From Gammaproteobacteria bacterium (GTDB lineage Bacteria > Pseudomonadota > Gammaproteobacteria > UBA4575), in the NCBI GenBank assembly GCA_965243395.1, contig CBDEUS010000001.1, forward strand, positions 448,001 to 512,000: 64,000 nt of DNA, read 5' to 3'. The notes under the pieces were generated by a model, which was given only the letters and a program-made list of their open reading frames with translations, did no database searches and had not been told where the DNA came from. Each line of letters starts with the position of its first letter. Within the stretch, counting starts at the first letter, position 1. Below are positions 18,157 to 54,615 of the stretch, piece after piece. A program made the position numbers and the translations under genes.

Positions 18157-18879
18157 TCAGGTGCGTAGGGTTTCAAGATGTGAACTATCAGGAGTGCAGC
18201 GGAGAACACTGCCTTGGTCATACCAGTCTCCTAGCACGGTTCGTTGATGGGGTTTGCCATTTAATATGAATTCATGCTCGGCAGGGCGGTGAGTGTGGCC
18301 ATGAATCAAGTGCGTGACATTATGTTTTTGCATTACTTTTTCGACAGTTTGTTGGTTTACATCCATGATTTCTTCTGGTTTCTCTTGAATAGCTGATTTG
18401 CTCTTATTGCGTAAACCATCCGCAATTTTTAGGCGTTGCTTTACGCTAAGTAATAGCACGGCTCTTCTAATTAACGGGTTGCGTGCTTTCGCGCGATATT
18501 TTTGATAAGCAATATCATCGGTGCATAACGTATCACCATGCATAATGAGCGTAGGGGTGCCATATAAATCGATTACCGTTTCTTCCTGTAATATTTTGCA
18601 CTGTATTTGTCTAGCAAACTTTTTGCCTATTAAGAAATCACGGTTTCCATGAATTAAAAAAACGGGCGTTCCCGAAGCACTGAAAGTGCGAAGAGAATCA
18701 ATTACTGGTTCAAGTCCTACTGCAGGGTCGTCATCACCAATCCAGTATTCAAATAGATCGCCTAAAATATATAGCGCATCTACACCAGAATTACTTTCTA
18801 AAAAACGACAAAAAGCCGCAATGATATGCGGCCTTTTGGGATCGAGATGTAAATCAGATACAAATAGTGTTTGAGTCAT
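18157..18879 (-). CDS. lpxH: UDP-2,3-diacylglucosamine diphosphatase
   Basis: SDLHL, GDLFEYWIGDD, HGNRDF, HGDTLCTDD and HGHTH motifs; downstream of ppiB. Confidence 0.96.
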   Translation of the reverse strand: MTQTLFVSDLHLDPKRPHIIAAFCRFLESNSGVDALYILGDLFEYWIGDDDPAVGLEPVIDSLRTFSASGTPVFLIHGNRDFLIGKKFARQIQCKILQEETVIDLYGTPTLIMHGDTLCTDDIAYQKYRAKARNPLIRRAVLLLSVKQRLKIADGLRNKSKSAIQEKPEEIMDVNQQTVEKVMQKHNVTHLIHGHTHRPAEHEFILNGKPHQRTVLGDWYDQGSVLRCTPDSSHLETLRT

Positions 18880-18904
18880 TCCTCAATACTTGTTTGATAT
18901 CGAA

Positions 18905-19483
18905 TTATTCTACAACGGTGACTTTCTCAATCACGACCGTTTCAGAAGGTACGTCCTGGTAAGGGCCTTTAGTTGTTGTAGGGACATCTTTGATTTTATT
19001 TACAACATCCATGCCTTCAGTAACTTTACCAAAGACAGCATATCCCCATCCTTGTGGAGTTTCACTGCTGAAATTCAAGAAATCATTGTCTTTAACATTA
19101 ATAAAAAATTGTGCAGTAGCGGAGTGTGGGTCTCCTGTTCTTGCCATAGCAATTGTGCCTACATCATTTTTAAGCCCATTATTGGCTTCATTGTTAATAG
19201 GATCATGTGTAGTTTTTTGGCTCATATCTTCAGTAAAACCGCCACCCTGTATCATGAAATTTGATATCACACGATGAAAAATCGTGCCATCATAAAAACC
19301 TTCTTTTGCATAAGTTAAGAAGTTCGCAACAGTGTTTGGAGCATTATCAGCATCGAGTTCGAGCATGATTGTTCCGTGATTAGTGTCCATTTTTACCATT
19401 GTAGTTTCTGCCTGAGTGTTAGTGGTTATCATGAAAAATGATATGAATACGAACAGAAGAATTTGCTTGCGCAATGATTTCAT
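18905..19483 (-). CDS. ppiB: cyclophilin-type peptidyl-prolyl isomerase with N-terminal signal peptide
   Basis: [24 protein letters not shown] and WGYAVFG motifs; ppiB position, but a PpiA-like signal peptide. Confidence 0.85.
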
Positions 19484-19720: not shown

Positions 19721-19797
19721 CGGGGCATAGCGCAGTCTGGTAGCGCATCTGCTTTGGGAGCAGAGGGTCGGGGGTTCAAATCCCTCTGCCCCGACCA
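19721..19797 (+). tRNA. tRNA-Pro(TGG)
   Basis: CGGGGCA/TGCCCCG acceptor stem, TCTGC-TTTGGGA-GCAGA anticodon arm, GGTTCAAATCC T-arm, CCA end. Confidence 0.97.
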
Positions 19798-21022: not shown

Positions 21023-22318
21023 ATGTCGAAAAGCTCATTACCACCCGGACCTGAACAAGCATTTAGTCTAAATGCTGATGAACAATCCTTTGAATTGATT
21101 GGGAGTTTACTGAGTGAGTATGGAGATATTGTTAGCCTGCCAAGCCCTGAAGGGAAACCCGCACAAATAATCATTAATCACCCTGATTACATTAAAGAAG
21201 TATTTGTAACCGAACATAAAAGTATGCAAAAGGGCACAGGATTTGATCGTGTGAAAATTTTGCTTGGTAATGGGCTTATTGTGAGTGATGGGGAATTTTG
21301 GCAGCGTCAAAAACGCATGATTCAACCGATGTTTCATAAAAATGTATTACAGAAAGTGCACACCATTATGTGTGAATGCAATATTCGTTTGGTTGAAAAC
21401 TGGAAAACCAAAACAGAACAGGGGAAGAATATCAATGTAACTAAAGATACTTGTTATCTTGCTTTAGAAATTATCCTGCGCGCACTATTTAGTGAAGACT
21501 ATGATGAAATGTCCTATAAAGGCGTTAACCCGTTTTTCGTCTTAGCCGAACATACGGAAAGGGATTTAGACTTAGTAGTTAAATTTCATAATTTAGGTAA
21601 GTATGTCACACGTTGTATGCAAGATCGTATTGAGCATGAACGTTATCCTGATGACTTACTGTCTATGCTGATGTTGACGGAGGATAAAATCACTCAAGAG
21701 CGAATGACAGAAAAGGAAGTATTAGATGAAGTGATGACTCTGATCGTTGCGGCACATGAAACGACAGCAGCTACGGTTAATTGGATTTGGTATTTTCTTT
21801 CTGAATATGATCAGGTTCTTGCCGGTATCAGAGATGAAATTGACCGCTTAGAGTCAAATCCGCCCAATTTTGAAGCCTTGCAAAAACTGCCATATATTCG
21901 ACAAGTGATTGATGAGGCATTGCGCATGTACCCACCCGGATGGTTACTAAGTCGAGAGGCAATTGAGGACGTTGAGTTAGGAGGTTATCAGCTAGAGGCA
22001 GGCACAAATATTTTTATTTCTCCCTATTTTGTGCACCGACACGAGAAATTTTGGCAACAGCCAGAACAGTTTGATCCACATCGTTTTTCTGAGAGCAATG
22101 CCAAGCAGATCAATCGTTATGCCTATTTTCCATTTTCTATGGGGCAAAGAAGATGCCCAGGCGAAATATTTGCATTGATTGAAATGCAAGTGCATTTCGC
22201 TTATGTTTGCAAGCACTTGGATATGAAATATATTAAAGACATGCCAATTACTTTAGAACCTTTGATAAATCTGCGTACGCAACAAGATTTTTACATGCAA
22301 GCACAGCCTCGCCATTAA
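21023..22318 (+). CDS. cytochrome P450
   Basis: I-helix AAHETT, ExxR (EALR), FDPHRF, heme motif FSMGQRRCPG. Confidence 0.96.
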   Translation: MSKSSLPPGPEQAFSLNADEQSFELIGSLLSEYGDIVSLPSPEGKPAQIIINHPDYIKEVFVTEHKSMQKGTGFDRVKILLGNGLIVSDGEFWQRQKRMIQPMFHKNVLQKVHTIMCECNIRLVENWKTKTEQGKNINVTKDTCYLALEIILRALFSEDYDEMSYKGVNPFFVLAEHTERDLDLVVKFHNLGKYVTRCMQDRIEHERYPDDLLSMLMLTEDKITQERMTEKEVLDEVMTLIVAAHETTAATVNWIWYFLSEYDQVLAGIRDEIDRLESNPPNFEALQKLPYIRQVIDEALRMYPPGWLLSREAIEDVELGGYQLEAGTNIFISPYFVHRHEKFWQQPEQFDPHRFSESNAKQINRYAYFPFSMGQRRCPGEIFALIEMQVHFAYVCKHLDMKYIKDMPITLEPLINLRTQQDFYMQAQPRH

Positions 22319-22346
22319 TTCTTGGCAATTCAATTAAAATTAAATA

Positions 22347-24344
22347 ATGCAATTTCAAACCTTAGTCGCTGCACTCGAGTACAATCGAAGTGATGATCGT
22401 TTTGTGGGCTTTATCAATGGTCAAGACCAAGAAAAGATTATTACGTTTAACGAGCTTTACCAGCGTGCATTAGGCTTACTAAATTTTTTGCAAGAAAAAG
22501 ATGTTAGTCAAGGCGACTATCTAATATTAAATTTAAATGATAATGAACAAATGGTGGATGTGTTTTGGGCATGTCAGTTCGGTGGCATTGTCCCTGTGCC
22601 GTTGGCAATTGGTATAAGCGATCAACATCGTCAAAAAGTTTTTAATGTTTATCAACAATTAACCTCTAAAGAATTAAAAAAAGCATATTTGTATACGGAC
22701 CGTAAAACTTTTCACAAGTTACAAGCGAGTGCTGCTGATCAATCTGACAATATGGTATGGCAGTCATTATCGGCAAATACAATTCTTACGGATGATGTTG
22801 TTGATGTTTCTCACCCTGGACAAATTGCGAACGTTCTACCCGAAGATATTTCATTTATTCAGTTTTCCTCTGGCTCCACAGGCAGTCCTAAAGGAGTGGT
22901 GCTAAAACATCGTAATCTGTTGGCAAATATTGATGGAATACAACAGGCTGCACAATTTACAACAAACGATACCAGCTTAAGTTGGATGCCGCTTACGCAT
23001 GATATGGGATTGATTGGATTTCATTTGAATCCAGTCGTGTGTAATTACAACCACTATATTATGCGAACAGATTTATTTGTACGCAGACCTTTATATTGGA
23101 TGACTGCGGCAAGTGATAAAAAAGCTAACGTCTTATGTTCGCCCAATTTTGGCTATAAGCATTTTTTAAATGCGTATCGTCGCAAAGGGTTGCAAGATAT
23201 TGATCTTTCCCATATGCGTTTAATTTTTAATGGTGCTGAGCCCATTTCTGTAAATCTGTGTGAGCAATTTACTAACGAATTGGCACAGTATGGTTTGCCA
23301 AAGAACAGCATGTTTCCTGTTTATGGTCTAGCTGAGGCAAGCCTGGCCGTAAGCTTTCCTACTATAGGAGCAGAATTGGAAGTGCTTAACGTAACACGGG
23401 AGTCAATTGCTATTCATTCAGCAGCAAACTTAGCATCAGATACTGAAGCGGCTTCAACCCTGGTGGGTGTTGGTCAAACTATTCCTCACTGTTATGTCAG
23501 AATAAGTGACGAATTGGGTAAAGAACTTCCAGAAAACATGGTTGGGCATATACATATTGGAGGTAAAAACGTTACAGAGGAAATTATTGGAGATGACGGC
23601 ACAATGTTTTTTGACGGAGGTTGGGTAAATACGGGGGATCTTGGTTTTGTTTCTAATCAGGGTTTGTTTATTACGGGAAGATATAAAGAAATTCTGTTTG
23701 TGAACGGACAAAATTTCTATCCGCATGATATTGAAAATTCCTTGCAGAACATTGCAGGATTGGAACAAACACTTGAATTAGGTAAAGCTGTCGTTACTGG
23801 TGTGACTTCTAATAAAGATGATTTAGAGCAGGTGCTTATTTTTGTTTTACATAAAGGTGCAGTAGAAGAATTTAAACCAATTGCTGCAAAGATTAAAACT
23901 AATGTAAACGAACAATTTGGCATAGAAGTACATCATGTTATCCCGATACGAAAAGTTCCAAAAACAACAAGTGGGAAAATTCAACGTTCGGCTTTAGCTG
24001 ATGCTTATCTTGATGATGAATTTAGTGACATACTGCAAGAGCTTTCTCCCCAGCCAATTTCTGAAGTGAATGATGAGCAGCCAGGTGAAGAAGAAGACAA
24101 TCAAGATGAGGTCGTTAATGCAATTCGTAAAATTTGTTTAGAGGCTTTGCCGGATAAGACTTTCAGCGTGAATGATAGCTTATTGGAATTAGGTGCAAGT
24201 TCGCTTTCTCTAGTAGAAATTCACTCGGGTTTAGACGAGCTCTATCCTGGTCAAATTGAAATTACAGACTTGGTGGATCATCCGACGATTACCGACCTCG
24301 CAGCGTTTATAAAGAATAAAGAATCATTGGCTGTGAGTGGTTAG
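22347..24344 (+). CDS. fatty acyl-AMP ligase-type adenylation domain fused to a C-terminal carrier (ACP) domain
   Basis: FIQFSSGSTGSPKGV, SWMPLTHDMGLIG, NGAEPI, YGLAEA followed by a FAAL-like insertion, TGDLGF, PKTTSGKIQR; acidic linker; carrier motif LLELGASSL. Confidence 0.9.
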   Translation: MQFQTLVAALEYNRSDDRFVGFINGQDQEKIITFNELYQRALGLLNFLQEKDVSQGDYLILNLNDNEQMVDVFWACQFGGIVPVPLAIGISDQHRQKVFNVYQQLTSKELKKAYLYTDRKTFHKLQASAADQSDNMVWQSLSANTILTDDVVDVSHPGQIANVLPEDISFIQFSSGSTGSPKGVVLKHRNLLANIDGIQQAAQFTTNDTSLSWMPLTHDMGLIGFHLNPVVCNYNHYIMRTDLFVRRPLYWMTAASDKKANVLCSPNFGYKHFLNAYRRKGLQDIDLSHMRLIFNGAEPISVNLCEQFTNELAQYGLPKNSMFPVYGLAEASLAVSFPTIGAELEVLNVTRESIAIHSAANLASDTEAASTLVGVGQTIPHCYVRISDELGKELPENMVGHIHIGGKNVTEEIIGDDGTMFFDGGWVNTGDLGFVSNQGLFITGRYKEILFVNGQNFYPHDIENSLQNIAGLEQTLELGKAVVTGVTSNKDDLEQVLIFVLHKGAVEEFKPIAAKIKTNVNEQFGIEVHHVIPIRKVPKTTSGKIQRSALADAYLDDEFSDILQELSPQPISEVNDEQPGEEEDNQDEVVNAIRKICLEALPDKTFSVNDSLLELGASSLSLVEIHSGLDELYPGQIEITDLVDHPTITDLAAFIKNKESLAVSG

Positions 24345-25198
24345 TTATAAAGAGATTTTTTCTTTTTCCATCTTTTGTGAATCCATAACCAGTCTTCCGG
24401 TCTTTTTAAAATTTGTTGCTCAACCGCGTCCACATACGCTTGGGTGATTGGTGTTGTATCTTTTTGGTAAGGTGGTACAGCGAGCAGCTTGAAACTTGCA
24501 TGGTACTTACCCCGACTGATTCTTTCTAAATCCATGAAAAATACAGGATACTTAAATAAGGCTGCTATTTTTTCTAAACCTAAATAAAACGGCGTATCCT
24601 GATTTAGAAAAGTAGTCCAGTAAGCATCATCGCGGCGACGCGGAGCTTGATCAGGTGCGATAGCAATAATTCGCGTTTGCTTGGAACGTTTAATTAAATC
24701 TGTAATGCAGGTTTTAGCAGGAGTAAGAGTGATCCCGTATTGTGAACGCGATTCGAGGGCTAGTTCATTAATCCATTTTTGATGCAAAGGTTTATATATG
24801 CCGTCAATGGGGTGTTTAAAAAACTGACTTGCAGCCAGTATCGCCCATTCCTGATTACACTGATGAGCTAAAGCTAAAATTATTGTCTGGTTGTTGTTTA
24901 GTGTTTTTTCGATAGCTTCAGCATTGCTGTAAGTAACATATTCACTAATCTCATTTGGTTTTAAGTCAATGGTCTTAAGTATTTCCAATAAAATTTGAGA
25001 AAAATTACGATAATTTTTTTTCACTAATTTTCGTTGTTCTAGTTTGTTAAGATCAGGAAATGAATTGCGGATATTTTTTTCTGCAACATCGCGCCTAAAC
25101 CTAATAATATAAAACATCAAAAAATAAACTGGCCACGACAGTCCATACAAAACTGGCAGCGGCAAAGTTGCAATAAGTTTTAGAAAAGTTTTACGCAA
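24341..25198 (-). CDS. LpxL/HtrB (LABLAT)-family acyltransferase
   Basis: N-terminal membrane helix, HQCNQE (Hx4E), PDQAP, FLNQDTP, WLWIHKRWK. Confidence 0.92.
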   Translation of the reverse strand: MRKTFLKLIATLPLPVLYGLSWPVYFLMFYIIRFRRDVAEKNIRNSFPDLNKLEQRKLVKKNYRNFSQILLEILKTIDLKPNEISEYVTYSNAEAIEKTLNNNQTIILALAHQCNQEWAILAASQFFKHPIDGIYKPLHQKWINELALESRSQYGITLTPAKTCITDLIKRSKQTRIIAIAPDQAPRRRDDAYWTTFLNQDTPFYLGLEKIAALFKYPVFFMDLERISRGKYHASFKLLAVPPYQKDTTPITQAYVDAVEQQILKRPEDWLWIHKRWKKKKSLYN

Positions 25199-25226
25199 GA
25201 AATGTATGTTTTGTTATTTAAAAAGT

Positions 25227-26096
25227 TTAATTTTGCTCAACAGGTTTTTGTAGTTTCCATCTACGATAAGCCCATAACCAATCTTTTGGATTATTGTTTA
25301 TTTGTGCTTCTAATTCAGAGATATATGCACGCATGATTTGGTTAGGATCTTCAGAAAAGGGCGGCTCAGCAAGAAACTTAAAGTTTGCTTGATAATACCC
25401 TTTTCGCTTTCGTGCCAGTGACATAAAAACTATCGGGTACTTAAATGCTCGTGCAATTTTTTCTGTACCAGTATGAAATGCCGTATCGCGATTTAAAAAA
25501 TGTTGCCAATAAGGCGTATCATTTTTTTTGGGTGATTGGTCTGCTGCCATCGCGAGCATGCGGGTGATTTTGGCGCGTTTTAGAGAATCAGCAACAAATG
25601 TTTCCATTGGTAATGGTGTGACATCAAAACGAGTTCTTAAATGATAAAAAATTTCTTCTAAGCTTTCTGTACGCTGTTTACGGTACACGGTATCCACTGG
25701 AAAATTTAAGTACTGCGCACAAGCTAAAAGTGCCCACTCAAAATTGCAGTAGTGCGCTGTAACAACGATGACTGATTGCCCTTGTTTCAGGTAATCTTCC
25801 AATAAATGTAAATTTTTAAACTCAACGCGTTTTTTTATCTCTTCTTTACTGAATCTAAGCGCTTTTATAGTTTCTGCCAGCACCATGCATGTGCTCTTGT
25901 AATGGTTTTTAGCCAACTCAAGGCATTCTGATGCAGAATATTCAGGAAAAGATGCTTTAATATTATTTAGCGTAAGTGCTCTACGTACTTTGAAGACATG
26001 AAAAAGTAATACATAGCACACCCAGGAAATACCGTGCAGTAACCAAAGTGGTAATAAAGATAAAAGTTTGATTACAAGAACAATGATTTTCTGCAT
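25227..26096 (-). CDS. LpxL/HtrB (LABLAT)-family acyltransferase
   Basis: HYCNFE (Hx4E), ADQSP, FLNRDT, GTEKIAR, WLWAYRRWK. Confidence 0.92.
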   Translation of the reverse strand: MQKIIVLVIKLLSLLPLWLLHGISWVCYVLLFHVFKVRRALTLNNIKASFPEYSASECLELAKNHYKSTCMVLAETIKALRFSKEEIKKRVEFKNLHLLEDYLKQGQSVIVVTAHYCNFEWALLACAQYLNFPVDTVYRKQRTESLEEIFYHLRTRFDVTPLPMETFVADSLKRAKITRMLAMAADQSPKKNDTPYWQHFLNRDTAFHTGTEKIARAFKYPIVFMSLARKRKGYYQANFKFLAEPPFSEDPNQIMRAYISELEAQINNNPKDWLWAYRRWKLQKPVEQN

Positions 26097-26264: not shown

Positions 26265-26594
26265 ATGGACTTAGATGACATGGATGTTCAAGGAAGACAA
26301 ATAATGAAATGGATTATCAATACAGTATTGAGTCTTGCCAAGTTAATTATCATTAGCGGTTTAGTTCTGCTTTCTGTTTTTGTATTGCCCGTCATTGCAT
26401 TGATACTTGGATTAGGCATATCGCTTAGCTATGTGCGTGATAATGAATCTAAGTTCTATAATTTTAAATTACCTTTGATAAAACTAAATGCTCCAACCTT
26501 AAGCTATTTTAAACACTTCGAGCTTTTATTACCTCCAAGACTTATTACTCGAGTTCAGCATATTCGTATTTCACGAAATAAATCTATTTACTAA
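26265..26594 (+). CDS. hypothetical membrane protein (start uncertain)
   Basis: Long hydrophobic segment followed by a basic tail. Confidence 0.5.
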   Translation: MDLDDMDVQGRQIMKWIINTVLSLAKLIIISGLVLLSVFVLPVIALILGLGISLSYVRDNESKFYNFKLPLIKLNAPTLSYFKHFELLLPPRLITRVQHIRISRNKSIY

Positions 26595-26690: not shown

Positions 26691-26767
26691 GCGCCCGTAG
26701 CTCAACTGGATAGAGCACCGGCCTTCTAAGCCGGGGGTTGCAGGTTCGAGTCCTGCCGGGCGCGCCA
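26691..26767 (+). tRNA. tRNA-Arg(TCT)
   Basis: GCGCCCG/CGGGCGC acceptor stem, CCGGC-CTTCTAA-GCCGG anticodon arm, CCA end. Confidence 0.97.
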
Positions 26768-39648: not shown

Positions 39649-40371
39649 GTGAAACCAACAATCGTCTTACTGCCTGGCTTTGATGGTTCAGGGCGTTTGT
39701 TCTCACCACTTCATAAAGAATTATCTGAATCTGTTAATACAATTGTTCTTTCTTATCCAAGTGATAAGGTCATGACGTATTATGATTTGTGTCATTACTT
39801 AAAAAATGAGTTACCGGATTCACCTTATGTCATTTTAGGTGAATCTTTTGGTGGGCCGTTGGCCTTGATGCTTTCAAAACATGCAGGAGAAAACTTAAAA
39901 GGCATTATTTTGTGTGTCTCGTTTGTGAAAAACCCTCAAGTGTTATTCTCGAAGTTTATCCGACCCTTTCTAAAACCAAAGCACTTGCAAAAAGAAACAC
40001 CCGCCGTGTATATCAAAACCATGCTCACTAATGGTGTAGCGGATGCGAAACTGATTAAAAATATTCAGGCTGCCACGCGTGAATTAACGCGTGATGTGTA
40101 TTTTTATCGGCTACGAGAAATTGCAGATGTAGACGTAACCGATATTCTGGAAAAATGTGAGTTACCTATTTTATATCTTCGAGCAAAAAAAGATCGCTTG
40201 GTATATGAAAGCTCCATGAAATGGATTCAAGAAAAGGGAAAAAACGTAGCAGTTGAATATTTCGATGCGCCACACATGTTGCTACAAACTCAACCCAAGC
40301 AAGCAGCTAGGGTTATTCAAAAGTTTTTGGGTGAATGTATAAAAGATAAAAGGGCCAACTTAATGAGTTAG
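39649..40371 (+). CDS. alpha/beta hydrolase
   Basis: LPGFDGSG, GESFGG nucleophile elbow, C-terminal APH. Confidence 0.88.
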   Translation: MKPTIVLLPGFDGSGRLFSPLHKELSESVNTIVLSYPSDKVMTYYDLCHYLKNELPDSPYVILGESFGGPLALMLSKHAGENLKGIILCVSFVKNPQVLFSKFIRPFLKPKHLQKETPAVYIKTMLTNGVADAKLIKNIQAATRELTRDVYFYRLREIADVDVTDILEKCELPILYLRAKKDRLVYESSMKWIQEKGKNVAVEYFDAPHMLLQTQPKQAARVIQKFLGECIKDKRANLMS

Positions 40372-51401: not shown

Positions 51402-52271
51402 TTATTCGACGAAAAATTCTAACTTGATTCCAGCAACATCAATGATGTCGTGATCTTCAATAGGCTGCGCCTTACCTACTATTTTTTCGCCGTTAAGTTT
51501 TGATGGTGTGTCAGGATTACCGTCTATATGAATAATGAAATAACCTTCATTACGTTTTGTAATGCCTACTACTGCAACGTCTGGTTTTCCAACAGTGGTG
51601 AGGGATTTATCTAATGTGATTTCTTTGCCGCTATTTTTTCCATTTAAAATTTGAATACGGCCAATACTTGTTGAAGGTGATTGAGTGTTAATTTCAATAT
51701 CATCAGCAAGATCGTCTTTATTTTGATCATCACTCTTAGCTTTCATATATGAAGTAGTATCTATTGGATCAGAATTTACTTCTTCTGCTTTTTCTTTTGC
51801 TAAATCTGGAAGTTCTGTTTGTTCAGTATCATTTGTTGCGTCGACTATATCATCTTCTAGCGAGTTAATTTCTTTTTCTAAACTACTTATGTCTTCTTCT
51901 TCAGTGAGATTATTTTTTTCTGAATTAGCAGTCATAATTAATGTTTTTTCAAATTCACTGTTTGCAGAACTTGTTGCAAGATGGTTTACATATTTAATTC
52001 TATGATTGCCAATGTCGATGACATCACCATCTCTGAGTGCGTGTTTTTTGACAATTTTAGAATTAACAAATGTGCCGTTAGTACTGTTTAAATCTTCCAA
52101 AAAACAGTCATCTAGCACTGTGCTGATTTGAGAGTGGTATCCGCTGATCGCAAGATTATCTAGACAGATATCGTTATCTGTGCGTCTTCCAATAGTGATG
52201 ACTTCCTTTTCAATAGGAATTTCATCAACAATTTTTTCTTCGATACTAACAATTAATTTGGGCGCGCTCAT
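51402..52271 (-). CDS. FHA-domain protein with a second degenerate FHA-like C-terminal domain
   Basis: IGRR.DNDI, ISG.H, DLNSTNGTFVN; acidic linker with EKT; C-terminal TTVGKP...LNG...DHDII. Confidence 0.9.
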   Translation of the reverse strand: MSAPKLIVSIEEKIVDEIPIEKEVITIGRRTDNDICLDNLAISGYHSQISTVLDDCFLEDLNSTNGTFVNSKIVKKHALRDGDVIDIGNHRIKYVNHLATSSANSEFEKTLIMTANSEKNNLTEEEDISSLEKEINSLEDDIVDATNDTEQTELPDLAKEKAEEVNSDPIDTTSYMKAKSDDQNKDDLADDIEINTQSPSTSIGRIQILNGKNSGKEITLDKSLTTVGKPDVAVVGITKRNEGYFIIHIDGNPDTPSKLNGEKIVGKAQPIEDHDIIDVAGIKLEFFVE

Positions 52272-52274
52272 AAT

Positions 52275-53102
52275 TTATTTAGCCAACAACTTTCCAAATT
52301 TTGATTTCCAATTTTTTTTAGCAGGAAACTCTTTATTTGGTTGTGCTAACAAAACCGAAACGTTGTCTCGGCCTCCATTATCGTTGGCTTGTGCAATGAG
52401 CTTGTCAGCCAACTGGTCGAGATTATCTCTAAATGCGGTAACAGTCGCATGAATTTCCTGATCATCGACCATATCTGTCAGACCATCGGAACATAAAAGA
52501 TAGATGTCTCCAGGCATCGCTAAATCTTCTTTAATATCTACGGCAATACTGCCTTCTATGCCCAAAGCTCGTGTGACTAAGTTTTTATTTAGCGAAGAAT
52601 TCGCTTCTTCTTGTGTATAAAATCCACGATCTACAAGTTCTTGTAACAGAGTATGATCAACAGTGATTTGTTGTAGTGTACTGTCTCGAAACCGATACAT
52701 TCTTGAATCGCCAACATGTGCAATGGTGATCTGATTATCATAAAAAATGCCCATTACCAGAGTAGTACCCATACCGCGATATTGAGCTTCGCTACTACTC
52801 ATAGAAAAAATTGCTTCATTCGCTTTTACAATAGAATTTCTTGCGGCTAAGCTTTCTCTGGTATAACCCGTTTGTTCATCTATTTCGCCAGGGACTAAAT
52901 CAGGTATATCTTTACGTAACTCTTCAAGGATGGTGTTGACAGCTATTTCACTTGCAACCTCACCGCTTTTATAACCCCCCATGCCATCTGCAAGAACGAC
53001 TAATCCGATTTCTTGGTCTTCGCCAATTTTGTCTTCATTGTTAGTGCGTACCAATCCAGTATTGGAACGACCTGCAATATCTAGAATGCCTTTTAGATCC
53101 AT
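52275..53102 (-). CDS. PP2C/Stp1-family Ser/Thr phosphatase
   Basis: R..NED, ADGMGG, HVGDSR, LCSDGL and GGRDN motifs. Confidence 0.95.
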   Translation of the reverse strand: MDLKGILDIAGRSNTGLVRTNNEDKIGEDQEIGLVVLADGMGGYKSGEVASEIAVNTILEELRKDIPDLVPGEIDEQTGYTRESLAARNSIVKANEAIFSMSSSEAQYRGMGTTLVMGIFYDNQITIAHVGDSRMYRFRDSTLQQITVDHTLLQELVDRGFYTQEEANSSLNKNLVTRALGIEGSIAVDIKEDLAMPGDIYLLCSDGLTDMVDDQEIHATVTAFRDNLDQLADKLIAQANDNGGRDNVSVLLAQPNKEFPAKKNWKSKFGKLLAK

Positions 53103-53103
53103 A

Positions 53104-54615
53104 TCAACTATCTATCATCATTTCGCATTCGCGTAATTTGTTAGCCATGCTTGCTGCAGATTGAAAACGTTTGTCTGGGTCTTTTTCTAATGCTTTATTT
53201 ACAGTCCAGGCAATGCAGGAAGGTGTACCAGGATTAATTTCTGCAATATCTTTATGTTGTTCATGTGTGATAGAGCGCATTAACTCAGCCATAGTTTTAG
53301 GGCGGAACGGCGGTGAGCCTGTTAGCAAATGATATAAAGTTACCCCCAGTGAATAAAGGTCGGAGCGTGCGTCTAACCGATCACCTGCTAATTGTTCAGG
53401 AGACATATATAAAGGTGTTCCCAAAATTGATCCAGCTCGGGTTCTTGTTGAATCGGGAATCCTAGCTATTCCAAAGTCCGTAAGCTTAACGTAATCGTCG
53501 GTTTTGTTATATATGATATTTGCCGGTTTGATATCCCTGTGTATTAAATCTTGTTTATGGGAGTAAGCAAGTGCATCGGCGCATTGGGCGATAATTTTCA
53601 ATACTGTTTGAGGGTGAAGTAATTGATCAGCACGCGCATAGTTACGTAGATTTATGCCGTCTACATATTCCATGGCAATATAGGCATAGCCATCTGTTTC
53701 GCCACTGTCCAGTATTTTAACAATATTTGGATGGTTTAAATTACCCGCTGTTTCAATTTCTCGGTAAAAACGGAATTTGTACTCATCTAGATGATTTTCT
53801 TCTAATTCGTCTGAAAGGTTGAGTACCTTGATGGCTACAATTTGATCAGTAACGATATCTTTACCTTTAAATACAGCTCCAGTAGTTCCTTGACCAAGTA
53901 CACTGTCGACTTTATAGCGACTGCCATAAAGAGCAGGATATTCGCTTAATTCGCCACTTATACTGTCTTCATTTTCAATAGCATCATCTGATGTAACAAG
54001 TGTTTTCTCAGAAGCGAGTGCTTTTTCAATTATGGTCGACTGATAACCAGTAACTTGTGTATCAATAGGTGAAATATTTTCTTTGGTTTGAACTTCCGTT
54101 GTATCTATTGATTCTTCATCCTGTGTTTGAATTTCACTACTGAAAGATGCGATACGATTATTAATGTCTTTGAAGTTAGGTTCAAAATCTGCAATGTATA
54201 AAAATGCATTTTTAGCATTTTCAGGATCGCCTTTAATTTGAAAGTCAGTTGCTAAGTTATAAATTAAATTAGCGGTATCGTGATTTCTTGGACAAAGTTT
54301 AAATTTTTCAAAAGCAAGATTGAGTTGTCCCAAGCCTTGTAATTTAAGACCCACACTACGATTATTATTTCGTGACTGGAATCTATCTGCCGCTGTTATT
54401 GAGCGTTGTTTTTGATTAGAAGAAGCACCAAAGAAAGCCCAGCCAAGTGAAATAATCGAAATTAATGTGATAACGGTAACTTGAGTGATCCAGGCCGAAA
54501 CGCGCATATCCCAGAGTAATACTGTAAGGGCTATTAAACCGAATAGGCTTAATGCAAACCATTTATTATCGATTTTATTATCTCTTAACATAGATGCCTT
54601 GGTTATTTCCGCCAA
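53104..54615 (-). CDS. membrane-anchored Hanks-type Ser/Thr protein kinase
   Basis: Two TM helices, TPR-like segment, GQGTTG, VAIK, HRDIKPAN, DFG, GTPLYMSPE. Confidence 0.94.
   Translation of the reverse strand: MAEITKASMLRDNKIDNKWFALSLFGLIALTVLLWDMRVSAWITQVTVITLISIISLGWAFFGASSNQKQRSITAADRFQSRNNNRSVGLKLQGLGQLNLAFEKFKLCPRNHDTANLIYNLATDFQIKGDPENAKNAFLYIADFEPNFKDINNRIASFSSEIQTQDEESIDTTEVQTKENISPIDTQVTGYQSTIIEKALASEKTLVTSDDAIENEDSISGELSEYPALYGSRYKVDSVLGQGTTGAVFKGKDIVTDQIVAIKVLNLSDELEENHLDEYKFRFYREIETAGNLNHPNIVKILDSGETDGYAYIAMEYVDGINLRNYARADQLLHPQTVLKIIAQCADALAYSHKQDLIHRDIKPANIIYNKTDDYVKLTDFGIARIPDSTRTRAGSILGTPLYMSPEQLAGDRLDARSDLYSLGVTLYHLLTGSPPFRPKTMAELMRSITHEQHKDIAEINPGTPSCIAWTVNKALEKDPDKRFQSAASMANKLRECEMMIDS

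Follow-up and report, generated by a model that had tools for sequence, protein, structure and literature searches.

The acylation of lipid A sets the stability of the outer membrane and the strength of endotoxin sensing. To our knowledge, all textbook routes draw the acyl chains of lipid A from the carrier protein AcpP, with the exceptions of AcpXL (very long chains) and AlmF (glycine). AlmG, the transferase of the AlmF system, is a member of the acyltransferase family PF03279. In Vibrio cholerae, the ligase AlmE loads the dedicated phosphopantetheinylated carrier AlmF, and AlmG esterifies lipid A with glycine (cited part of PMC4278540). In rhizobia, a very long, (omega-1)-hydroxylated chain is delivered to lipid A by the AcpXL/FabZXL/FabF1XL/FabF2XL/LpxXL system (cited part of PMC5613085). 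Here we examine a locus of four genes in a 64,000-nucleotide stretch, hereafter the window, from a Gammaproteobacteria bacterium (assembly GCA_965243395.1, contig CBDEUS010000001.1, positions 448,001 to 512,000). A cytochrome P450 gene is followed by a gene for a fatty acyl-AMP ligase (FAAL) fused to a carrier domain, and this FAAL-carrier gene faces two PF03279 acyltransferase genes, which we call LabA and LabB. The domain content and intactness of these genes, their linkage, the clade structure of the acyltransferases, and the absence of other late acyltransferases or dedicated carriers from the genome are what we observed. From these we read the module as a putative private-carrier acyl donor for the secondary acylation of lipid A, with optional oxidation of the chain, and assign this reading a probability of roughly 55 per cent.

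Like AlmEFG, the module encodes an adenylating ligase, a dedicated carrier, and a PF03279 transferase together. In the cited part of the AlmEFG account, an amino-acid carrier ligase charges a separate small carrier protein with glycine, and all three genes share a transcript. In our module, by contrast, a FAAL-type ligase is fused to its carrier, the cargo is presumed to be a fatty acid, the transferases are convergent, and a P450 is added. AcpXL and LpxXL offer a second parallel, being a special carrier and a special late acyltransferase whose genes are clustered. In the cited part of that account, dedicated FabF and FabZ enzymes assemble the chain on the carrier, and neither an adenylating enzyme nor a P450 takes part, whereas in our module the chain would be loaded ready-made by the FAAL; neither a ketosynthase nor a dehydratase family of the FabF or FabZ type turned up in Pfam scans of the window. 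The canonical enzymes LpxL, LpxP, and LpxM share with LabA and LabB the PF03279 family, a similar length, a hydrophobic N-terminus, and the HX4E motif, but LabA and LabB fall far below the TIGR02207 and TIGR02208 cut-offs and into a separate clade. LpxJ (DUF374) is a proven lipid A late acyltransferase in Helicobacter, Campylobacter, Wolinella, and Rickettsia (cited part of PMC6148475). The P450/FAAL-carrier pair of Steroidobacteraceae-type genomes is also linked to a DUF374 gene; characterised LpxJ proteins, however, have no known private carrier, and the genome of the window has no DUF374 gene. The closest sequence relatives of the didomain, with the same architecture, are the loaders that join a FAAL to an acyl carrier protein (ACP), such as HapA, NocH, AmbG, and olefin synthase (cited part of PMC11837247), and McyG (4r0m). 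In the same cited part, ketosynthase or condensation domains receive the acyl group from those loaders. The genome of the window, holding two carrier domains in all, has no such recipient to offer, and the conserved neighbours of our didomain are membrane acyltransferases.

Full-text searches of the literature (main texts) found no description of a module combining a FAAL, a lipid A acyltransferase, and a P450, and no P450 tied to lipid A acylation. In the cited part of a 2025 review of FAALs (PMC11837247), 'lipid A' occurs once and 'P450' never. The logic of the module is known from AlmEFG and AcpXL. Its parts set it apart: the fusion of a FAAL to the carrier, the separate PF03279 clade, the LpxJ-type partners of other lineages, and an upstream slot for a P450 or radical SAM enzyme. 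Sequence comparison supports it well as a conserved module, and the chemistry given below is a proposal; the gene context indicates that the intact module probably builds an outer-membrane lipid by an undescribed route.

We infer the catalytic steps, the pairing of donor and acceptor, the acceptor itself, and the position of oxidation as follows. The FAAL domain would adenylate a free fatty acid and load it onto the phosphopantetheine arm of its own carrier, at Ser619. LabA and LabB, presumably anchored in the membrane, would take the acyl group from this private carrier instead of AcpP and esterify it to an envelope lipid, most probably forming the secondary (acyloxyacyl) chains of Kdo2-lipid IVA. 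Where present, the P450 would oxidise the chain, most likely hydroxylating it towards its omega end. Its substrate could be the free acid before activation or the carrier-bound acyl group, with roughly even odds, and oxidation after transfer is less likely. Since a FAAL is needed at all, the chain should be a free acid at some point. It may be exogenous, or it may be released for oxidation and then re-activated on a carrier that would shield it from phospholipid synthesis. P450 BioI, which oxidises acyl-ACP, provides a precedent for oxidation on a carrier, and the window P450 is not close to it; LpxO, a non-heme dioxygenase and lipid A 2-hydroxylase, provides one for oxidising a secondary chain of lipid A. 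Legionella lipid A bears ester-linked hydroxy, oxo, and dioic long chains (cited part of PMC7867332), which is a precedent for the proposed product.

The earlier note on this DNA, made from its letters alone, had described a complete P450 gene just upstream of the FAAL-carrier gene, two tandem acyltransferases on the opposite strand, and the enclosure of all four genes between tRNA-Pro and tRNA-Arg. Our coordinates agree (Table 1). The gap between the P450 stop and the FAAL start is 28 nt, the stops of the FAAL-carrier gene and LabA overlap convergently by 4 nt (24341-24344), and all four genes are open and full length in the window's list of open reading frames (ORFs). In agreement with the note, Pfam scans of the 64 kb (pruned ORFs of at least 70 aa) found no ketosynthase (KS), condensation, or reductase domain, no phosphopantetheinyl transferase (PPTase), and no ferredoxin.

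Within the didomain, the AMP-binding part covers residues 24-411 and the carrier residues 594-655 (nt 24126-24311); the protein has no other domain. Phosphopantetheine is presumed to attach at Ser619 (nt 24201-24203), in the motif G616-A-S-S619-L; G616 and S619 are invariant in 41/41 FAAL-carrier orthologs. The best NCBIfam match is PRK09192, 'fatty acyl-AMP ligase', at 353.1 bits (cut-off 600), and PRK05850 gives 229.5 bits (cut-off 775). Both scores are below their cut-offs and thus point to a divergent FAAL outside the named subfamilies. The top solved relatives are the McyG A-PCP didomain (4r0m), an E. coli FAAL (3pbk), and an L. pneumophila FAAL (3kxw), together with loaders and FAALs of polyketide synthases (PKS) and nonribosomal peptide synthetases (NRPS) (7r7e-g, 6ulw). 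Judged by these best matches, the adenylation domain is of the FAAL type. About 69 residues separate YGLAEA (aa 326-331) from GHIHIGG (~aa 400) in its translation, a stretch that may be longer than in CoA ligases and is a candidate for the FAAL-specific insertion that blocks CoA ligation. The whole genome (G000) has just two PF00550 domains, one in an 89-aa AcpP-type frame and the other the carrier of the didomain.

LabA and LabB carry the HX4D/E motif and exceed the PF03279 cut-off (Table 1), but the curated models of late acyltransferases do not recognise them. On TIGR02207 (LpxL/LpxP, cut-off 297.8), LabA scores 92.7 and LabB 99.5 bits; on TIGR02208 (LpxM, cut-off 336.05), they score 50.6 and 53.7 bits. 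Their best NCBIfam match, PRK08419, is still below its cut-off. We ran the same scan on eight other PF03279 paralogs of related genomes (L106-L110 and L113-L115) as controls. TIGR02207 was passed by L106 (324.1 bits), L108 (302.5), L109 (301.1), L113 (324.6), and L114 (326.5) and just missed by L107 (296.5); L110 and L115, best matched by PRK08905, scored 136.3 and 132 bits. Seven FAAL-linked copies from other lineages gave 66.9-98.4 bits on this model. The two window proteins are ~40% identical to one another, as paralogs at the level of the family, and 20-28% identical to canonical paralogs of related genomes.

In a maximum-likelihood analysis of 40 PF03279 proteins, from which matches shorter than 240 aa or with stops were dropped, the FAAL-linked copies fell into one clade (100/100 support), separated by a long branch from the eight canonical-type rows. 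Within the family, the LabA clade is sister to the LabB clade (99/99 support). Across the linked clade, with both window copies included, the catalytic H111 is present in 31/31 and E/D116 in 29/31. Five Steroidobacteraceae-type genomes have three PF03279 genes each, a canonical one (~225-243 bits), a linked one (115-124 bits), and a weak one. By sequence, then, LabA and LabB are not ordinary lpxL/lpxM products but members of a separate, FAAL-linked clade.

The rest of the genome is consistent with a role for this clade in lipid A synthesis. G000 (2.58 Mb, 2 contigs, 100% complete) encodes LpxH, LpxC, KdtA, and LpxK and thus makes lipid A. Its PF03279 matches are exactly two, LabA and LabB, and it has no match to DUF374/LpxJ (PF04028). 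The earlier note had raised the matter of separate canonical lpxL/lpxM genes: there are none in G000, where LabA and LabB are the sole PF03279 genes, yet these two are not ordinary lpxL/lpxM genes either. The module appears to have replaced the role of LpxL and LpxM in the window's family, as judged from gene content. Two relatives in this family, G018 and G020 (each 100% complete), lack LpxC, KdtA, and LpxK as well as a FAAL-carrier ortholog and any PF03279 gene. These genomes (1.5-1.6 Mb) seem to have lost lipopolysaccharide (LPS) synthesis altogether.

The family set comprised 24 relatives and G000. FAAL-carrier orthologs (61-91% identical, E <=1e-249) occur in 19 family genomes and PF03279 matches in 20. 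At every readable locus, the FAAL-carrier gene is followed by a LabA-type gene tail-to-tail or by a LabB-type gene within ~0.9 kb. The usual order is DUF455, lpxH, ppiB, the P450 where present, FAAL-carrier, convergent LabA and LabB, and then CHAP, CPBP, tig, and clpP. Five loci (L018, L019, L024, L025, and L030) have no lpxH in the flank, yet the pair is kept in all of them. Upstream of four of these lie genes of autotransporter, glycosyltransferase, Mur ligase, and bicarbonate transporter families; in L019, both upstream ORFs are without a family. At 3.7 kb upstream of the FAAL-carrier gene, L025 also encodes a photosynthetic reaction-centre cytochrome c subunit (L025:18-626; PF02276, 304 bits).

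Six family genomes have no FAAL-carrier ortholog (G002, G003, G004, G018, G020, and G024). We considered G003 and G004, which have Raetz-pathway genes, as losses of the module and rejected them: neither has a ppiB match, G003 also lacks the CPBP neighbour, and the module region is probably unassembled in these 190-contig genomes. Nor do G002 and G021 serve as counter-examples. In G002 the LabA-type gene is cut by a contig end and the LabB-type matches lie in two frames, and in G021 a contig end cuts the FAAL-carrier gene. G024 is a variant, with a linked-clade PF03279 gene (L111:7800-8675) convergent with a different fusion (L111:3765-7202), a 1146-aa MFS-PlsC-AMP-binding protein of the lysophospholipid transporter/Aas type.

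Outside the family, a scan of one genome per species found 560 relatives, of which the best 80 were taken to tblastn. Nine of these belong to the window's family; the remaining 71 are distant loci, with a full-length FAAL-carrier protein 44-48% identical to ours, mostly labelled Steroidobacteraceae or unclassified Gammaproteobacteria. The denominators that follow are the distant loci with enough flanking DNA. A P450 gene lies directly upstream on the same strand in 58/65, at -15 to +72 nt from the FAAL start. Within 1.1 kb, 21/67 have a convergent PF03279 gene; anywhere in the 10 kb downstream, 31/49 have one, in 18 of those 31 beyond an MFP-RND pair. Upstream, a divergent DUF374 gene faces the P450 within 3 kb in 52/56 loci. 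Either a PF03279 or a DUF374 gene is found in the flanks of 44/45 fully flanked loci, and the trio of P450, FAAL-carrier, and convergent PF03279 in 16/61. The earlier note had proposed such co-occurrence in unrelated taxa as a check, and these counts bear it out for the P450, for the convergent PF03279 gene, and for PF03279 or LpxJ-family genes taken together. By sequence, LpxJ-type acyltransferases are alternative or additional partners outside the family. PPTase-like matches fall inside the module in 9/71 loci. Locus assignments were confirmed by Pfam in five loci, and the PPTase in L032 only (PF01648), where it lies between the DUF374 gene and the P450. L032 (genome G443) and L078 (genome G454, one row in the counts) come from unpublished genomes; L032 supplies the Pfam-verified PPTase, one of the deep lineages, and an inositol-phosphatase neighbour described below.

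Seventeen genomes had no PF03279 gene at the locus. Twelve of these have a linked-clade copy elsewhere (324-429 bits on the clade profile), in six cases on the same contig within ~20 kb. A tree of 79 FAAL-carrier proteins and an outgroup, built without three duplicate loci and without six rows whose matches were short or held stops, resolved the family, L032, L037, L083 with L094 (genomes assembled from metagenomes and labelled Betaproteobacteria and Burkholderiales), L053, and a large Steroidobacteraceae-type clade. FAAL-carrier and convergent PF03279 genes occur together in the family, L037, L053, L083 with L094, and Steroidobacteraceae-type metagenome-assembled genomes, in differing surroundings. 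The trio with the P450 occurs in the family, L083 with L094, and the large clade. These lineages appear alike in the acyltransferase tree and the FAAL-carrier tree, and tail-to-tail spacing stays between -11 and ~+100 nt in lineages without other common neighbours.

In 18 loci, among them L043 (12658-17077) and L064 (15187-19888), the FAAL-carrier gene is separated from a same-strand PF03279 gene by an MFP and an AcrB-type RND gene. The position of this pump could mean that the product is exported. A gene of the inositol-monophosphatase family (PF00459) adjoins the module in two unrelated loci, following the FAAL-carrier gene in L032 (12148-12954) and beside the acyltransferase of G024 in L111 (8682-9482).

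The P450 is the least constant of the four genes. Its translation contains the loop FSMGQRRCPG, in agreement with FxxGxRxCxG, the heme-thiolate loop motif of P450s. Its nearest solved relatives are the plant carotenoid hydroxylases CYP97A/C, CYP3A4, the omega-hydroxylase CYP4B1, and CYP102 BM3. This group (CYP97/CYP3/CYP4/CYP102) includes chain-end fatty-acid hydroxylases, among them CYP4B1 and CYP102 BM3; the window P450 has no fused reductase. Such kinship fits a long hydrophobic chain as the candidate substrate and proves nothing further. Within the family, P450 orthologs (68-93% identical) are confined to G000, G012, G009, G001, and G022. A C-terminal remnant of 66-72 aa (56-59% identical) is retained in G006 (L011:3534-3731; G006:C138:15038-15250), between ppiB and the FAAL-carrier gene and directly upstream of the latter, which indicates loss rather than gain within the genus. 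Seven distant loci are without a P450 (L037, L053, L075, L087, L090, L092, and L093). In L087, a 457-aa radical SAM protein (L087:8613-9983; PF04055, 72.9 bits) stops 18 nt short of the FAAL-carrier match and fills the slot that a P450 occupies in the sister locus L082; no acyltransferase gene was found within the 10-kb flanks of L087. The P450s that abut or overlap the FAAL start in 58/65 loci and the radical SAM protein of L087 together argue that the upstream slot is functional. We conclude that the P450 is an optional, exchangeable part of the module. As a claim of the earlier note, its membership holds for most distant loci and not for the family at large, where only 5/19 FAAL-carrier genomes have it. 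G000 has two more P450 genes outside the window (C1:970328-971602 and C1:570185-570715, ~30% identical), and the type at C1:970328-971602 is conserved in most relatives.

The complex of LabA with the carrier (residues 583-665) was predicted with a median score of 0.49 (runs 0.42, 0.49, and 0.57), and the best of three controls scored 0.00. The runs share at least 100% of contacts, with a partner pLDDT (predicted local distance difference test) of at least 81. In the benchmark, the mark was reached by 58/80 solved complexes and 2/110 mismatched pairs, and at scores of 0.60 or less by 7 of the 80 solved complexes and both passing mismatches; these counts hold only roughly for our prediction, which used custom alignments. 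The model is weakly supportive, being compatible with docking, and does not tell the private carrier from AcpP.

Several observations weigh against reading the module as a private donor for lipid A. The carrier might dock, in the model, on any ACP-dependent acyltransferase, and the score is silent on specificity. Because the acyltransferase genes run towards the FAAL-carrier gene on the opposite strand, they are not co-transcribed with it. Synteny from lpxH to clpP is broadly conserved in the family, which weakens the linkage evidence from within it. The independent observations therefore number about five or six lineages, not 80 loci, most distant loci being one clade. Five of the 17 genomes without PF03279 at the locus had only weak canonical-type matches and no linked-type copy. 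The P450 is absent from 14/19 family genomes that keep the other module genes, so oxidation is not essential to the module. The one PPTase of G000 is of the AcpS type (a 133-aa frame), and no Sfp-type PPTase was found in that genome, which is a caveat for the activation of the carrier there. Finally, the joint loss of module and lipid A genes in G018 and G020 is weak evidence, as these are reduced genomes and the module genes are adjacent, and the coexistence with canonical LpxL and the intervening MFP-RND pair fit an acceptor other than lipid A equally well.

That last point leads to the alternative that survives best, which we consider unlikely but a serious contender. It keeps the same donor logic, from FAAL-carrier to acyltransferase, and makes the acceptor another envelope lipid, an exported glycolipid, or an aminolipid, leaving the lipid A of the family without secondary chains. 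PF03279 includes enzymes that do not act on lipid A, and LabA and LabB, which fail every curated model of lipid A late acyltransferases, weakly match a model of phosphatidylinositol mannoside acyltransferases (PRK07920). Steroidobacteraceae-type genomes carry the linked copy on top of a canonical LpxL, and the exporter pair precedes the acyltransferase in 18/49 fully flanked loci. G000, however, keeps the Raetz pathway with no other candidate for secondary acylation, LpxJ-family genes neighbour the module in 52/56 loci, and no module turned up in the two family genomes that have lost LpxC, KdtA, and LpxK.

We judge it improbable that LabA and LabB are ordinary AcpP-dependent late acyltransferases, that the P450/FAAL-carrier pair produces or salvages a different compound (for instance, supplying another enzyme with an exogenous or oxidised fatty acid), and that their adjacency is inherited synteny. 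The convergent, non-operonic arrangement would suit this explanation, as would the lpxH-clpP synteny kept across the family regardless of function, the 18/49 fully flanked distant loci with no PF03279 gene within 10 kb downstream, and G024, where a linked-clade acyltransferase sits beside the MFS-PlsC-AMP-binding fusion and not beside a FAAL-carrier. It accounts poorly, though, for the lineages that the acyltransferase clade and the FAAL-carrier tree share (the family, L083 with L094, L037, L053, and Steroidobacteraceae types) and for tail-to-tail spacing that stays tight where no other neighbours are common. The linked-clade copies in 12 of the 17 genomes without a flanking PF03279 gene, half of them within ~20 kb, also speak against it, and no Raetz-positive family genome with an assembled locus has one part alone, the variant G024 excepted.

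It is scarcely credible that the P450/FAAL-carrier pair belongs, as a fragment or a loading module, to a PKS/NRPS natural-product pathway: although its best solved relatives are PKS/NRPS loading didomains and FAALs (McyG 4r0m; 7r7e-g; 6ulw), FAAL-ACP didomains are known mainly from such pathways (cited part of PMC11837247), and the sole ortholog-level match among 400 phylum genomes lies in a 1938-aa frame, the window ORFs hold no assembly-line KS, condensation, or thioesterase domain (Pfam), the only carriers of the genome are AcpP and the didomain's own, and no megasynthase is present in the Pfam-scanned flanks of L032, L043, L053, L064, L069, and L111. The earlier note had named such a fragment as a finding that would overturn its proposal, and that objection falls away. 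The match in question was the single one (1/400) that the FAAL-carrier profile gave in other genomes of the phylum at E <=1e-90, so the FAAL-carrier family is rare.

Of the earlier note's route, in which a FAAL loads its own carrier, a P450 oxidises the chain, and PF03279 enzymes transfer it, the linkage and the standing of the pair as more than a fragment are supported; the P450 proves optional, and LpxJ-type partners take part elsewhere. A broader version of the private-donor reading is tentative, and we would sooner bet against it than for it. In that version, several gammaproteobacterial lineages would take the secondary chains of lipid A from a FAAL-carrier with its own clade of PF03279 (or LpxJ-type) acyltransferases and not from AcpP, LpxL and LpxM would be fully replaced in the family, and the P450 or radical SAM enzyme would oxidise the chain to hydroxy, oxo, or dicarboxylic products like those of Legionella, by a route unrelated to AcpXL.

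If the private-donor reading holds, the module would be a third exception to AcpP as the donor, and the first to include a FAAL domain and a P450. It would account for the completion of lipid A in bacteria without LpxL, LpxM, or LpxJ and offer a candidate genetic origin for secondary chains that are oxidised. It would also be a portable cassette by which the lipid A of laboratory strains could be given chosen fatty acids. The assignment would give a function to orphan FAAL-carrier proteins, which genome mining otherwise files as natural-product loaders.

Table 1. Module genes and neighbouring features in the window (nucleotide positions counted from its first letter).
Feature	Position	Strand	Details
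Cytochrome P450	21023-22318	+	431 aa; PF00067 263.1 bits (cut-off 22.8), aa 18-408; soluble type
FAAL-carrier didomain	22347-24344	+	665 aa; PF00501 154.7 bits; PF00550 35 bits (cut-off 20.8)
LabA, PF03279 acyltransferase	24341-25198	-	285 aa; 131.1 bits (cut-off 22.3); hydrophobic N-terminus
LabB, PF03279 acyltransferase	25227-26096	-	289 aa; 131.5 bits (cut-off 22.3)
Membrane-like hydrophobic ORF	26265-26594	+	109 aa; divergent from LabB; no Pfam family
lpxH (UDP-2,3-diacylglucosamine diphosphatase)	18157-18879	-	TIGR01854 299.9 bits (cut-off 190.35)
tRNA-Pro(TGG)	19721-19797	+	ARAGORN; left landmark
tRNA-Arg(TCT)	26691-26767	+	ARAGORN; right landmark
Two small ORFs between tRNA-Pro and P450	19862-20164, 20247-20702		no Pfam family

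The lpxH gene lies 2.1 kb upstream of the P450, and lpxH and ppiB together span 18157-19483. Between 19500 and 27000, we counted 19 promoter-like sites (24.3 +/- 5.9 in shuffled sequences) and 11 terminator-like sites (5.3 +/- 2.6), none of which defined transcription units. The 109-aa ORF lies between LabB and tRNA-Arg; it matched no Pfam family at E <=1e-5 and DUF6574 only below threshold. It is kept beside LabB in the family, with 34-79% identity by tblastn in L018, L020, L021, L022, L024, L028, and L112. By Pfam scans of its ORFs, the remainder of the 64 kb is housekeeping. The earlier note had seen no thioesterase domain in or near the pair; the sole thioesterase-like signal is a weak PF00975 match (33.8 bits) in an alpha/beta hydrolase at 39649-40368, 15 kb off and not tied to the module. 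Further along, at 51402-54612 on the minus strand, genes for an FHA-domain protein, a PP2C phosphatase, and a eukaryote-type Ser/Thr protein kinase are adjacent.

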